NCBI GenBank assembly: GCA_030637655.1
Contig: DAOWGI010000116.1
Coordinates: forward strand, 1-18,478
Source: a candidate division FCPU426 bacterium
GTDB lineage: Bacteria; Oederibacteriota; JAAXVQ01; JAUVAV01
Length of the DNA: 18,478 nucleotides
Direction: 5' to 3'
Shown here: piece by piece, positions 1,702 to 9,661 of the stretch
Layout: each line of letters opens with the position of its first letter
Position numbering within the stretch: position 1 is the stretch's first letter
Notes under the pieces: model-generated
Databases searched by the model: none
What the model saw: the letters and a program-made list of their open reading frames with translations, nothing else
What the model was told of the DNA's origin: nothing
Translations under genes and position numbers: made by a program

Positions 1702-1755
1702 AAAAAACGAAACACGAAATTCGAAAAAAGATTGATAACCGAAGGGGTGAATGAA

Positions 1756-3120
1756 ATGAAAAAGATACTACTGATGATTTTAAGCGTCACCATATTTACA
1801 ACCGGATGCAGTATGCATGTGTACAAACGGAGTGACTCGCCATACACGCAATATACCCAATACACACCAACGCCGTATCCATATTATATCCCGCAAGAAA
1901 AACCACAACAGTATTCTTTGCCTGTGCAGGAACAATCCAGGACCGCAGCTTTGCCGGCACCGACTCCGCAATATACATCAAAACAGGTGGCAGCACCACA
2001 AGTTATTCACGTAGAATCTGAGCCTGAACCAATAGTGCAGGTGGTGGAAGAGGTTGTGGTTACCACAGCTGCGCCGGATCATATCTGGGTCAGCGCGCAG
2101 GTAATTGCAGATGATATCATTATTCCCGGATTTTATCGCCCCCAGGTACGGGTTGGATTTACCTGGACCAATGGCTATTGGCAGGGCGGTATTTATATCC
2201 CCGGTTTTTGGCGTCCAGTGAAAAAGCATGCTCGCGGCTATATGTGGGTGCCGGGTCATTGGTATGGCGGTCGTTGGGTCAAGGGACTTTGGCGTTATAC
2301 CCGGCGTTCGGGGTATGTTTGGATACCCGGACATTGGAATAATGAAGGTGTTTGGGCACATGGTCATTGGCGTCCCAAAAATCACAGACGCGGTTATGTA
2401 TGGATACCCGGGCATTGGGATCAGCATGAACATTGGAAATTCGGTCAGTGGCGTTTGAAACACCGCCAAGGATATGTTTGGGTGAAGGGACGCTACAATC
2501 GTCATGGTATATGGACTGCAGGTTCTTGGAAGAATGTTCCTAAAGGAAAAGTATGGGTGCGAGGGTATTGGAATCAGCAAGGGGGATGGGTTAAAGGCCT
2601 TTGGCGGGAGCAGTCCCGTCAGGGCTATAATTACAGAAAAGGGCATTATGACCGGAAAGGCCATTGGCAACCCGGCCGGTGGAAACCAAAACAGCGTCAA
2701 CCCAAATATGGGACCGGTACGTATGGCAGAAGCAAAACCAAAGTGATCGTGAACGAGTCTGCGTCCAAACGCTCAAAAATCAAGGATACCGTGGAAAAAC
2801 AGGAAGCACTGAAACAGTATGAAGATGCTGAAGATGAGTTTGAATACCAACAACATCCGCGCGGAGAACATAGAAAAAGCAAGGTAAAAAAAGTGGTTAT
2901 TACCACAGAGAAACGCAAACCCAAAGTGATTATTAAAAAAGACAGAAGAAATAAGAAAGTGGTTATTACCAAAAAAGAGAAGCAAAATAAGCATAAACAT
3001 AAAGACAAATATGGGCAGGAAAATAGAAAGCAAAAGAAAAAGACCGAGGTTATTGTGGAAGAGAAAAAACCGGGCAAATCCGGTAAATCCAAGATTAAAA
3101 AAATCGTTGTGACGAAATAA
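1756..3120 (+). CDS. lipoprotein with WxxGxW (YXWGXW-type) repeats and a Lys-rich C-terminal tail
   Basis: Signal peptide with lipobox MKKILLMILSVTIFTTG-C18; Pro/Gln/Tyr linker; about 15 [WY]xxGx[WY] motifs; charged tail. RBS AAGGGGTG upstream of ATG 1756. Confidence 0.85.
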   Translation: MKKILLMILSVTIFTTGCSMHVYKRSDSPYTQYTQYTPTPYPYYIPQEKPQQYSLPVQEQSRTAALPAPTPQYTSKQVAAPQVIHVESEPEPIVQVVEEVVVTTAAPDHIWVSAQVIADDIIIPGFYRPQVRVGFTWTNGYWQGGIYIPGFWRPVKKHARGYMWVPGHWYGGRWVKGLWRYTRRSGYVWIPGHWNNEGVWAHGHWRPKNHRRGYVWIPGHWDQHEHWKFGQWRLKHRQGYVWVKGRYNRHGIWTAGSWKNVPKGKVWVRGYWNQQGGWVKGLWREQSRQGYNYRKGHYDRKGHWQPGRWKPKQRQPKYGTGTYGRSKTKVIVNESASKRSKIKDTVEKQEALKQYEDAEDEFEYQQHPRGEHRKSKVKKVVITTEKRKPKVIIKKDRRNKKVVITKKEKQNKHKHKDKYGQENRKQKKKTEVIVEEKKPGKSGKSKIKKIVVTK

Positions 3121-3133
3121 GGAGGAAAATGTC

Positions 3134-3547
3134 ATGAGACGCTCATTTTTGTTGGCACTGGGAATTGCCATTCTTTCCGTAAGTATGATTGCCGGTTGCC
3201 GCGGGCCGAGTGGTCCGGTGGGACCGGAAGGTCCGGCAGGTCCTGGTACCCAGACCACCTATCTCTTCCGGATTATGCCCACTGACGCCAGTGGAACGTA
3301 TGCTGCCAATTGTCCGGTAGTTCATGTGGACAATGCCGGAGGCGAGTATTCCACAGTAAGTTGTTATTTGCACTTTGATGGTTTTGCTGATGCACCCTTG
3401 GTGCCATTCACAGATACTGAGACAGATGCCACGACCACCAAATATTTCTGTTCTCTGGAAGACGGCAAGGTCAATTTGGGATGGATAAATAGCGGGACAA
3501 CGATTCCTGCTGTTTTTGATTTGGTGGTTACAGTAGTAAATCCATAA
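3134..3547 (+). CDS. lipoprotein with a short collagen-like Gly-X-Y stalk and a small beta-rich domain
   Basis: Strong RBS AAGGAGG; lipobox IAG-C22; GPSGPVGPEGPAGPG; 13-nt gap after the previous gene suggests an operon. Confidence 0.8.
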   Translation: MRRSFLLALGIAILSVSMIAGCRGPSGPVGPEGPAGPGTQTTYLFRIMPTDASGTYAANCPVVHVDNAGGEYSTVSCYLHFDGFADAPLVPFTDTETDATTTKYFCSLEDGKVNLGWINSGTTIPAVFDLVVTVVNP

Positions 3548-3570
3548 TGGTATTCTAAGGCAAAAGGTGA

Positions 3571-3606
3571 CGTAGTAGGGAACAGTCCTGACTGTTCCCT
3601 ACTACG
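3571..3606. repeat. GTAG-type REP-like perfect palindrome
   Basis: CGTAGTAGGGAACAGTC(3571-3587)-CT-GACTGTTCCCTACTACG(3590-3606), 17-bp perfect arms. Confidence 0.8.
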
Positions 3607-3625
3607 GGGATTGGTTTTATTTTGT

Positions 3626-3854
3626 GTAACATATCAGTGAAGCAAGAAAGACATATGGTCTGCTAATTTATTTTTTCCCAGGGACGCGACTTGCCTCCGG
3701 CAAGTGCAAATTCAAAATTGCCAATCAGCTAAGTTATTTAGAATTTCGTATGCGGCTTGGGTTAGAGCGCGCTTCCCCCTTGGGAAAAAATAAATTAGCA
3801 GACCATATGTTTCCGGGTTATTTGACAAAACACAGCACTTCACTGACCTGTTAC
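3626..3854. mobile_element. non-autonomous MITE-like cassette A with IS66-type GTAAC ends
   Basis: Terminal inverted repeats GTAACATATCAGTGAAG(3626-3642)/CTTCACTGACCTGTTAC(3838-3854), 15/17 match; flanks TATTTTGT(3618-3625) and CATTTTGT(3855-3862), 7/8 direct repeat. Confidence 0.7.
3651..3810. repeat. 160-bp element with perfect 30-bp inverted repeats, nested in cassette A
   Basis: ACATATGGTCTGCTAATTTATTTTTTCCCA(3651-3680) is the exact reverse complement of 3781-3810; inner hairpin ACTTGCC(3689-3695)/GGCAAGT(3699-3705). Confidence 0.85.
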
Positions 3855-3862
3855 CATTTTGT

Positions 3863-4001
3863 GTAACATGTCAGTTATGGTTTTTTTTGTTTGTCATCCC
3901 CGAATGTTTGTATCGGGGATACGGTTCAAAAAACCAGATTCTCGATTAAACCCTCGGGAATGACAATCTTTGTTTAACTGCGCAGTTCACTGCCTGTTTC
4001 C
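3863..4001. mobile_element. degenerate cassette B with IS66-type ends, in tandem with cassette A
   Basis: Left end GTAACATGTCAGT(3863-3875) is near-identical to the left end of A; right end TTCACTGCCTGTTTCC(3986-4001) is a decayed copy of TTCACTGACCTGTTAC; flanked by identical CATTTTGT at 3855-3862 and 4002-4009. Confidence 0.55.
3891..3966. repeat. GTCAT...ATGAC-type REP-like element nested in cassette B
   Basis: Termini TTGTCAT/ATGACAA; hairpins ATCCCCGA/TCGGGGAT and TTCTCGA/TCGGGAA; central GGTT/AACC stem. Confidence 0.8.
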
Positions 4002-4047
4002 CATTTTGTTCAATTTCAACTTGTTTTTCCAGTCTTTTTTATTTATA

Positions 4048-4109
4048 GTAGGATCGCATGGCATGCGCCCAATCAACCTAACAGTATGGGCGTATTGCAT
4101 ACGCTCTAC
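4048..4109. repeat. inverted doublet of GTAG-type REPs (REPIN-like)
   Basis: GTAGGATCGCATGGCATGCGCCC(4048-4070) and GGGCGTATTGCATACGCTCTAC(4088-4109), each with an internal palindrome, GTAG/CTAC at the outer ends. Confidence 0.65.
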
Positions 4110-5981: not shown

Positions 5982-6009
5982 TTGACAAAAAGGAACCGTA
6001 CATGATACT
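5982..6009 (+). promoter_or_regulatory. sigma70-type promoter for the LysM gene
   Basis: TTGACA(5982-5987), 16 nt, GATACT(6004-6009). Confidence 0.5.
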
Positions 6010-6181
6010 TTACACAAAACATTTATTTTATTATACAGAGGATTTAATATCCTATGTGCAGGAAACAAAAAGGAAACCAGTTTGGTGTTGCCGGGTAGTC
6101 AGAGTATTGTTTTAAACTAGGTTTTATAGGTGGTTCTCAAGAAGGAAAACCACCCTAATACTGGAAGGAGGTGAAAAACGT

Positions 6182-7423: not shown

Positions 7424-8725
7424 GTGGACGTACTGATACTGAATGACACAATTATTCTGGTAATACTCTTCTTTTTTTCCGGTTTTTTTTCTGCCAGTGA
7501 GACAGCCTTGATGGGTCTGGGACGCAGCCGTTTGGCTCATGCCATTGAAAAGGGAGGCGCCCAAGGGCGTGCTTTGGAGTGCTGGAAAAATGATCCCAAC
7601 AAATTATTAACCACCATTTTGATTATGAATAATATGGTAAATATTACTGCTACCACAGTCGCTGCGTTTTTGGCTGTGCATATTTCAGAGATTTTGCAGT
7701 ACAGTCGTGGTCAGATGGGAGCTCTGGTTGCTGCTGTTGTGACAGTAGTGATTATTATTTTCGGTGAAGTTACACCAAAAGTATTGGCCATTCACAAATC
7801 GGAAAAAATCGCACTGCTGGTTATCCGTCCCCTGGTGTTGCTGGCCAAAATTCTGCACCCCTTAAGCCGTTTTCTGGTTTTTATTGCCAGTATATTTTTA
7901 CGTCCTTTTGGGCTCAAACCCGGAAGTTCGATACCCATGGTGACCGAAGAGGAGATACACGCTCTGATCAAAATAGGCGCGGATGAAGGAGTGCTGGAAG
8001 ATCAAGAACACCAAATGATTCATGGTGTTATTAGTTTGGGTGAGACCCAGGTACGCGAAGTAATGGTTCCCAGAACAGAGATGGAATGCGTTAATGCTGA
8101 TCACAGTATGGATCGGATCATTAATCAAATTGTACAAGCCGGGTATTCGCGTATGCCGGTATATAAGGGTAGTGTGGATAATCTTGTGGGTGTGGTCTAT
8201 TCCAAAGATGTTATTTCAGTCCTGCAAAACAAGGAACTGATTGTATTGCAGGATATTTTACGTATCCCCTATTTTGTGCCTGAGACCAAAAAGGTCGATG
8301 AATTATTGCACGAATTTCAGCGCGGGAAACTGCATTTGGCGGTTGTGGTCGATGAATATGGCGGAACCTCAGGCTTGGTTACCCTGGAAGACTTGATTGA
8401 GGAAATCGTCGGGGAAATTCGTGATGAGTACGATGTGGAAGAAAAAAACATTGAGAAAACCGAAGATAAAACCTGGTTGGTTAATGCCCAAACCGATATA
8501 AAAGAAATTAACGATGTTCTGGAAATAGAGCTCCCGGATATGAAAGATTTAAATACCATCGGTGGTTTTGTGATAAATTTATTGGGCCACCTGCCGAAAA
8601 AGGGCGAACAAATCATTCATCAAAATCTTCATTTCACTATTATAGCTGCCAGTAGCCACAAAATCGATAAAATTCAAATCCGCATGTTAGATAAACCAAT
8701 AGACACCCCTGCTGCTGAAGCATGA
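7424..8725 (+). CDS. CNNM/HlyC-CorC family transporter (DUF21 + CBS pair + CorC domain)
   Basis: SGFFSASETAL, IFGEVTPK, VREVMVPRT, GYSRMPVY, PYFVPETK, AVVVDEYGGTSGLVTLEDLIEEIVGEIRDEYD; GTG start after GAGGA. Confidence 0.93.
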   Translation: MDVLILNDTIILVILFFFSGFFSASETALMGLGRSRLAHAIEKGGAQGRALECWKNDPNKLLTTILIMNNMVNITATTVAAFLAVHISEILQYSRGQMGALVAAVVTVVIIIFGEVTPKVLAIHKSEKIALLVIRPLVLLAKILHPLSRFLVFIASIFLRPFGLKPGSSIPMVTEEEIHALIKIGADEGVLEDQEHQMIHGVISLGETQVREVMVPRTEMECVNADHSMDRIINQIVQAGYSRMPVYKGSVDNLVGVVYSKDVISVLQNKELIVLQDILRIPYFVPETKKVDELLHEFQRGKLHLAVVVDEYGGTSGLVTLEDLIEEIVGEIRDEYDVEEKNIEKTEDKTWLVNAQTDIKEINDVLEIELPDMKDLNTIGGFVINLLGHLPKKGEQIIHQNLHFTIIAASSHKIDKIQIRMLDKPIDTPAAEA

Positions 8726-9402: not shown

Positions 9403-9417
9403 AAAAACTGATTTTTT

Positions 9418-9631
9418 GTAACTACTCAGGTGGGTAAAAAAAGTATTCAAATGTTCACGCCTGGCAGGTCACTTTGGTCTTTTTTCAAGCATTGCAAAGC
9501 GGAAAACCAAGGTCCAGGCTGATAACGGGCAATAAGGGGATATGCTTTTCTAAACCACATCTTCGCAGTTACCGCTGCTACGCTTGAAAAAAGACCAAAG
9601 CGCCCTGTTCCTTGCAGACCTGAGTAGTTAC
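9418..9631. mobile_element. 214-bp MITE-like cassette C with IS66-type ends
   Basis: Perfect 14-bp inverted repeats GTAACTACTCAGGT(9418-9431)/ACCTGAGTAGTTAC(9618-9631); perfect 8-bp direct repeat GATTTTTT(9410-9417 and 9632-9639); internal perfect 19-bp inverted repeat 9472-9490/9582-9600. Confidence 0.85.
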
Positions 9632-9661
9632 GATTTTTTTCCATTAAATTATAGTTTTATA

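Follow-up and report, generated by a model that had tools for sequence, protein, structure and literature searches.

Probable MITEs with ISBst12/IS66-type ends share one 8-bp target upstream of aspS

Bacteria and archaea carry MITEs, among them Correia/NEMIS, Nezha and MITEAba12, together with REP and REPIN elements, which are mobilised by RAYT transposases, and mobile insertion cassettes (MICs), in which IS ends surround passenger DNA. Head-to-tail IS dimers with a spacer of the length of the target duplication are known for IS21 and IS30. To our knowledge, neither a head-to-tail dimer nor an insertion beside a resident end has been described for IS66-type elements. Integron attC sites, which also delimit arrays, have the core sequences RYYYAAC and GTTRRRY.

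Within the IS66 family, ISDge4 of Deinococcus geothermalis belongs to the ISBst12 group and has the ends GTGACTACTCAGCA and GTAACTGCTCAGCA, a direct repeat of 8 bp and one 449-aa transposase, according to the available portion of PMC12898284; the available portion of PMC8369957 gives its length as 1469 bp and its copy number as 8. An IS66-like copy in Geobacillus kaustophilus pHTA426 has a single 485-aa ORF that matches DDE_Tnp_IS66 (1.9e-64) and NF033517 (333.7 bits against a cut-off of 180), its ends are GTAACTATTCAGCCC and GTATCTATTCAGCCC, and it is flanked on both sides by GACGAGTT. When the pHTA426 transposase was used as a tblastn query, 190 plasmid records were obtained, and we examined seven plasmid loci with single-ORF IS66 copies, being six of these records and pHTA426 itself. 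Five of the seven have ends of the form GTAAC/GTAAG/GTTAC-N3-(T/C)CA(G/A), and four of those five lie within perfect 8-bp duplications. Such duplications surround the copies on plasmids of Acaryochloris (ends GTTACTGCCCAGGCT), Octadecabacter (GTAACTCCCAAG) and Streptomyces (GTAAGCATTCAGAAGG). The Bacillus thuringiensis plasmid copy, with GTAACTACTCAGCTT at both ends, is without a perfect 8-bp duplication; the sequence GTAACTACTCAG found at both of its ends is identical over the first 12 nt to element C, described below. No ends of this form could be defined for the Pseudanabaena and Deinococcus QL22 plasmid copies. In B. thuringiensis pLM4 (L127), further solitary ends, one of them GTAAGCATTCAGTG, were seen at ~583 and ~2365, no more than ~110 bp from a full single-ORF IS66 element around which no duplication is present; elements of the family are clustered or nested there.

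The stretch of DNA analysed here (the window) comprises 18,478 nucleotides from a candidate division FCPU426 bacterium, and three elements that we call A, B and C are present at two sites within these 18.5 kb (Table 1). Reading positions 3618-4009 in order confirms the alternation of target, unit A, target, unit B and target that an earlier note on this DNA had described. A and B have the same orientation, head to tail, and three copies of YATTTTGT, which vary at a single position, separate and flank them. The sequences on the two sides of an element agree at 8/8 positions for B, 7/8 for A and 8/8 for C. YATTTTGT alone is common in the window (5 found against 3.29 expected), and what is non-random is its exact position at all three unit borders. 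Moreover, the two-ended pattern GTAACWNNTCAGKK-N(180-210)-MMCTGANNWGTTAC matches A and C in the window and was obtained 0 times in 200 shuffles.

Table 1. Positions of the array upstream of aspS, of element C and of associated features in the window.
Feature	Position	Strand	Details
Hairpin, perfect 17-bp stem	3571-3606	+	3' of ORF 3134-3547; followed by T-rich tract
Target copy 1	3618-3625		TATTTTGT
Probable MITE A, 229 bp	3626-3854		Ends GTAACATATCAGTGAAG, opposite strand GTAACAGGTCAGTGAAG
A interior, 160 bp	3651-3810		33-nt inverted-repeat arms, 97% complementary
Target copy 2	3855-3862		CATTTTGT; common to A right end and B left end
Probable MITE B, 139 bp	3863-4001		Left end GTAACATGTCAGT intact; right end decayed (...CACTGCCTGTTTCC)
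B interior, two REP-like hairpin units in inverted orientation	3891-3966		GTCATCCCCGA...TCGGGGAT; other strand GTCATTCCCGA...
Target copy 3	4002-4009		CATTTTGT
Probable MITE C, 214 bp	9418-9631 (with duplications 9410-9639)		Both ends GTAACTACTCAGGT
C target duplication, perfect 8 bp	9410-9417 and 9632-9639		GATTTTTT

The insertion target of the array lies within the T tract behind the hairpin at 3571-3606, which looks like a terminator of the upstream gene; terminator-like sites with the tail TGGTTTTATT were found at 3594-3611. The gene aspS, encoding aspartyl-tRNA synthetase, is located 128 bp downstream of the array. No transposase is encoded by any of the 15 window ORFs, and A, B and C are without a transposase gene, the ORF list giving just short or read-through frames at these positions, in agreement with the earlier description of the units as non-autonomous. 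No Rfam family was matched in the window, a tRNA scan of the window found no tRNA genes, and blastn of positions 3560-4060 against plasmids gave no match. An integron cassette array was considered and rejected, given that the right junction reads GTTACCA, not GTTRRRY, and that no integrase is present among the window ORFs. Three side observations concern the surrounding DNA. Between the array and the aspS start (~4040-4100), short palindromes are visible by eye (GCATGGCATGC; GCGCCCA...TGGGCG) that could be an aspS leader or operator, with no Rfam match. On the minus strand at 5988-6019, just past the aspS stop, TTTTGT is followed by GTAAAGTATCATGTACGG, a stretch with 75% similarity over 32 nt to the flank and left end of B. 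Either a solo end that has decayed or chance could account for it; its end-matrix score does not exceed those of shuffles, and we have taken it as chance level. Finally, three 63-nt direct repeats that are 63-71% identical occur at 2311-2607, within ORF 1732-3120, which encodes a WXXGXW repeat protein.

The terminal inverted repeat of A is 17 nt long and 88% complementary (15/17 positions), and the DNA of A is predicted to fold into a single long interrupted hairpin (-58.3 kcal/mol, z -10.0). A 23-mer from the inner arm has no second occurrence in the window, and no relative of the 160-bp interior of A is present in the 1.04 Mb of scan loci among the matches listed (see below). This interior may be a palindromic core that is integral to A, or else a second element nested in it, and we lean slightly toward an integral core because C and most relatives share that build. 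The left end of B, GTAACATGTCAGT, matches that of A at 12/13 positions, and with the preceding flank it is 95% identical to its counterpart in A over 20 nt. The right end of B is a decayed copy of the right end of A (79% identity over 28 nt including the flank), so that B is probably immobile now. The interior of B has 19-nt arms (GTCAT.../...ATGAC) that are 84% complementary, and unit B as a whole has a predicted fold of -22.7 kcal/mol (z -4.5). Units related to the hairpins of B are found at 7591-7677 of a locus from a Nitrospirota bin (L009), outside any GTAAC element. Since these interior hairpins belong to a family that also occurs alone, B probably acquired, or was invaded by, such a REP-like unit. 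The hairpin family common to B (3893-3964 of the window) and L009 has the form GTCATYCCCGAATG...ATCGGGRAT, with compensatory changes in the stems, and its presence in both gives a hint as to relatives of the source organism. As in REP and REPIN elements, the interior of B consists of two short imperfect palindromes in inverted orientation and has a related unit with compensatory changes in L009; in contrast to REP and REPIN, a single such pair is present in the window, and it is the one in B.

The earlier note had regarded A and B as related shells around different contents. Only termini of transposase type are common to the two, however, amounting to 13 nt at the left end and ~22 nt at the right end, and with A and B alike at the termini alone there is no conserved shell. 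When the termini are counted in, none of 2000 shuffles attains the similarity score observed, whereas no signal is left without them, and no similarity between the interiors of A and B was found in either orientation. Element C is situated 5.4 kb from A and B, with a DUF2085 gene on one side and a Yip1 gene on the other. It has the architecture of A, in which an end stem leads through an asymmetric internal loop to a long inner stem topped by an apical region, and its interior contains a 32-nt inverted repeat.

We scanned genome contigs with the pattern GTAACNNNTCAGKK-N(178-208)-MMCTGANNNGTTAC, which covers total lengths of 206-236 bp. At least 119 stretches were obtained, compared with ~17 expected by chance on our own estimate, calculated for a 40-bit pattern with 31 gap lengths in 596 Gb of uniform base composition. 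From the matches listed, 118 loci totalling 1,044,248 bases were analysed, giving 123 unique elements when those of the window are included; individual loci are designated by L numbers. On a rough reading of their titles, the matches listed come from several dozen assemblies in many bacterial and archaeal phyla. The bacterial taxa in this list include Opitutales, Ekhidna, Saprospiraceae, Chloroflexia, Anaerolineae, Nitrospirota, Brocadiaceae, Desulfobacterales, Thiotrichaceae, Pseudanabaena, Microcystis and Peptococcaceae, and the archaeal matches listed are from Methanosarcinales and other archaeal bins. No 30-mer is common to the window and any of the 118 loci listed.

That other GTAAC-bounded copies with 8-bp duplications should exist had been anticipated, and both C and the public genomes bear this out. 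Among the matches listed, the 8-bp flanks agree at 8/8 positions in 49 elements and at 7/8 in 14, or 63 of 120 testable elements; the other 57 of these 120 are without a good duplication. As a control, the right 8-mer was displaced by 20 bp, and 0 of 119 elements listed then reached 7 matches. Empty sites rebuilt for 112 of the elements listed and searched for in the loci gave 10 junction-spanning matches. In the three that we inspected (L003, L064/L019 and L105/L022), an uninterrupted paralogue or orthologue has a single copy of the 8-bp target. Filled sites therefore have two target copies and empty sites one, which demonstrates insertion with 8-bp duplication directly for elements of the superfamily other than A and B. 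At positions left free by the pattern, the consensus end of the matches listed has TAC at 6-8 (79%, 81%, 75%) and GT at 13-14 (88%, 84%), and the ends of C are identical to this consensus. A and B have a rare variant of the end, with A at position 6 (3% of the ends in the matches listed) and T at position 13 (12%). In L010, L012, L034 and L118, TCAGTG/TT variants are accompanied by perfect duplications. The targets in the matches listed are moderately AT-rich (67%, compared with 60% in the flanks) and have no strict consensus.

The interiors fall into 63 clusters among 126 elements (the matches listed, with B included), and A, B and C are all singletons; according to blastn, end sequences are all that lineages in the matches listed have in common. 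When the three elements of the window and their interiors were compared with the scan loci listed by blastn, the matches were likewise confined to the termini of C, apart from short REP-like matches to B. An inverted repeat within the interior scores above all 10 shuffles in 76% of the 123 elements from the matches listed (median score 17.5, compared with 9.2), so that these MITEs normally have an interior that is palindromic and specific to a lineage. End pairs that lie 40-6000 bp apart in the scan loci listed and have flanks agreeing at 7/8 positions or better are all 205-442 bp long, and the longer variants in L001, L008 and L028 consist of a short MITE plus an internal segment. The interiors are not inert, as these variants, the IS nested in L044 (see below) and the hairpins of B illustrate. 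A few loci have features of their own. Thirteen GTAAC-N3-TCAG ends are packed very densely into 19.7 kb of a Thiotrichaceae bin (L031), where they adjoin a gene for a PtuA-like defence ATPase and a HEPN gene. In L052 (4740-5016), the 8 bp before the left end of the second element, GTTTGGTA, are the reverse complement of the first left flank, TACCAAAC, which points to recombination between two copies, with inversion as the result; events of this sort may explain some of the 57 elements without a duplication. L061, L094, L100 and L101 form one cluster in which no element has a duplication and extra internal end motifs are present, the left flank TAACAACG being common to L061, L100 and L101, and the GTAAC-N3-TCAG motifs there look like repeats within a larger element.

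What had been claimed for the locus about IS66-type ends and an 8-bp duplication agrees with ISDge4, as given in the available part of its description, and with the single-ORF IS66 copies on plasmids. A tblastn search of the 1.04 Mb of scan loci among the matches listed with the pHTA426 transposase returned nothing, and since IS66 transposases are absent from both the window and these loci, the link between the MITEs and IS66 comes from the ends and the duplication length rather than from co-occurrence. On this evidence, assignment of the ends and 8-bp duplication of A, B and C to the IS66 type, and to the single-ORF ISBst12 group within it, is supported. By this measure, both ends of A and C, and the left end of B, are of IS66/ISBst12 type, the right end of B being decayed. 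Like ISBst12-group elements, A, B and C have GTAAC-N3-TCAG ends and an 8-bp target duplication. They differ in being 139-229 bp long and without a transposase gene, whereas full elements of the group measure ~1.5-1.65 kb and encode one transposase of 449-485 aa; in A and B, the ends are also of the rarer type, with A at position 6 and TCAGTG/TT. A parent in the IS4 family was considered because a 1641-bp element with GTAACTATTCAGGTA ends in L044 contains an IS4-like transposase. This candidate was rejected because alignment to neighbouring MITEs and a perfect internal 28-bp inverted repeat show nesting: an IS4-family IS (1799-3439) with its own perfect 28-bp ends and a 389-aa transposase, in which a Y-2-R-3-E-6-K motif can be recognised by eye, sits inside a GTAAC-ended host MITE with intact outer ends. 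An origin from IS4-type (DDE_Tnp_1, YREK) elements was likewise discarded, six distant plasmid homologues of the L044 transposase having other ends. Text passages, Table 1 and supplement text of an IS4 review (PMC2266710), in which the end alignments are images, contain no matching end consensus.

Taken together, we consider it probable that A, B and C are MITEs with ISBst12/IS66-type ends and that A and B came to lie at one target by re-insertion. At the ends, a single-ORF DDE transposase of the IS66 family (ISBst12 group), presumably supplied in trans by a full-length copy elsewhere in the genome, would bind and cut; it would recognise a terminal inverted repeat of ~14-17 nt (GTAAC-N3-TCAG-K-K) and insert by an 8-bp staggered cut, with AT-rich intergenic DNA as its preferred target. 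A and B would then be two different members of one end-subfamily that were inserted at a single 8-bp target within the T tract, the second insertion perhaps re-using the target copy beside the resident end and so giving the order target-A-target-B-target, and their palindromic interiors would be the usual anatomy of such MITEs. The elements resemble other bacterial and archaeal MITEs in being small and non-coding, with terminal inverted repeats and a target duplication, and in being intergenic and hairpin-forming, with many unrelated interiors behind one type of end; they differ in the end type, which here is IS66/ISBst12. Literature searches (IS66 with MITE; ISBst12/ISDge4) turned up no account of MITEs that have such ends, and a full-text literature search for GTAACTACTCAGG gave no match. 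As in MICs, IS-type ends bracket DNA that is unrelated to the parent IS; passenger genes are absent here, however, and the interiors are short palindromes. The two units are non-coding transposon relics, ordinary in kind although this kind is very widespread, and the evidence favours MITEs of the ISBst12/IS66 end type over the undescribed system for which the earlier note had named them a candidate.

The one unusual feature of the locus is the head-to-tail arrangement, which is uncommon. The junction between A and B is the sole case in which two ends are separated by exactly 8 bp, with no such case among the other 123 elements from the matches listed, where the nearest end-to-end neighbours are 21 bp (L031) and 30 bp (L052) apart. 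In the absence of a strict target consensus, sequence preference alone does not explain the exact re-use of 8 bp. The junction resembles IS21 and IS30 dimers in that a right and a left end are spaced exactly by the length of the target duplication, but the interiors of A and B are unrelated. These dimers count in favour of a tandem duplication, by which one MITE and its target were copied, through slippage or unequal exchange between the 8-bp copies or as a head-to-tail dimer made by the transposase, and the copies later diverged and had their interiors replaced. The near identity of the target copies, which differ at 1 position, and the common orientation of A and B fit such an event, as does the finding of no second re-insertion at the same target among the other 123 elements from the matches listed. 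This explanation also keeps some weight because A and B have rare, side-specific end features in common (ACAT(A/G)TCAGT on the left, ACAGG(T)CAGTGAA on the right). Past the left-hand 13 nt and the right-hand ~22 nt, however, similarity is zero, even outside the inner palindromes (3639-3650 in A, 3876-3890 in B), and so complete a loss fits badly with near-perfect target copies. We therefore regard a tandem duplication as unlikely, and re-insertion into the target copy beside a resident end is favoured because nothing outside the termini is common while the target copies are almost perfect.

It is less likely still that IS66-ended shells carry or receive palindromic mobile elements, with the composites moving and building arrays. 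Some support for such a modular shell-plus-cargo system, which had been the original proposal for this locus, is provided by the REP-like hairpins within B, whose family stands alone in L009, by the IS4-family IS that lies with its 28-bp ends inside a MITE with intact outer ends in L044, by the internal segments of the longer variants in L001, L008 and L028, and by the nearly perfect inner repeat of A compared with its outer ends (15/17). The proposal is nevertheless not supported: A and B have no conserved shell, the interiors of the matches listed are spread over 63 unrelated clusters among 126 elements, and inverted repeats occupy the interiors of C and of 76% of relatives among the matches listed, which are single-family elements. 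In addition, the matches listed contain no composite at two places and no second array. A non-mobile origin, in which the region serves aspS as a structured leader or in its regulation, or consists of palindromes arisen by chance, would suit its position directly upstream of aspS and its strong folding but is very improbable, as no Rfam family matches and the same end pair with an 8-bp duplication is present at an unrelated site in the window and in many genomes among the matches listed.

Returning to re-insertion as the preferred reading, one can speculate, at rather long odds, that ISBst12-type transposases are drawn to the target copy flanking a resident end, that MITEs with different interiors would thereby stack head to tail on one 8-bp target, and that their hairpin cores recruit REP-like units. 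If true, such end-targeted stacking and recruitment would yield chimeric elements that could be moved by two unrelated transposase systems. For the window itself the finding carries little weight, the region being intergenic transposon debris upstream of aspS. More widely, MITEs marked by the 14-nt end GTAACTACTCAGGT and an 8-bp duplication are present in several dozen assemblies, by a rough reading of the titles of the matches listed, and the MITEs so marked among these matches belong to many bacterial phyla and to archaeal methane-oxidiser lineages and have dozens of unrelated interiors. With one end and an 8-bp duplication as a simple signature, annotators can recognise a common repeat that goes unannotated, and this signature ties the repeat to a poorly studied group of transposases.
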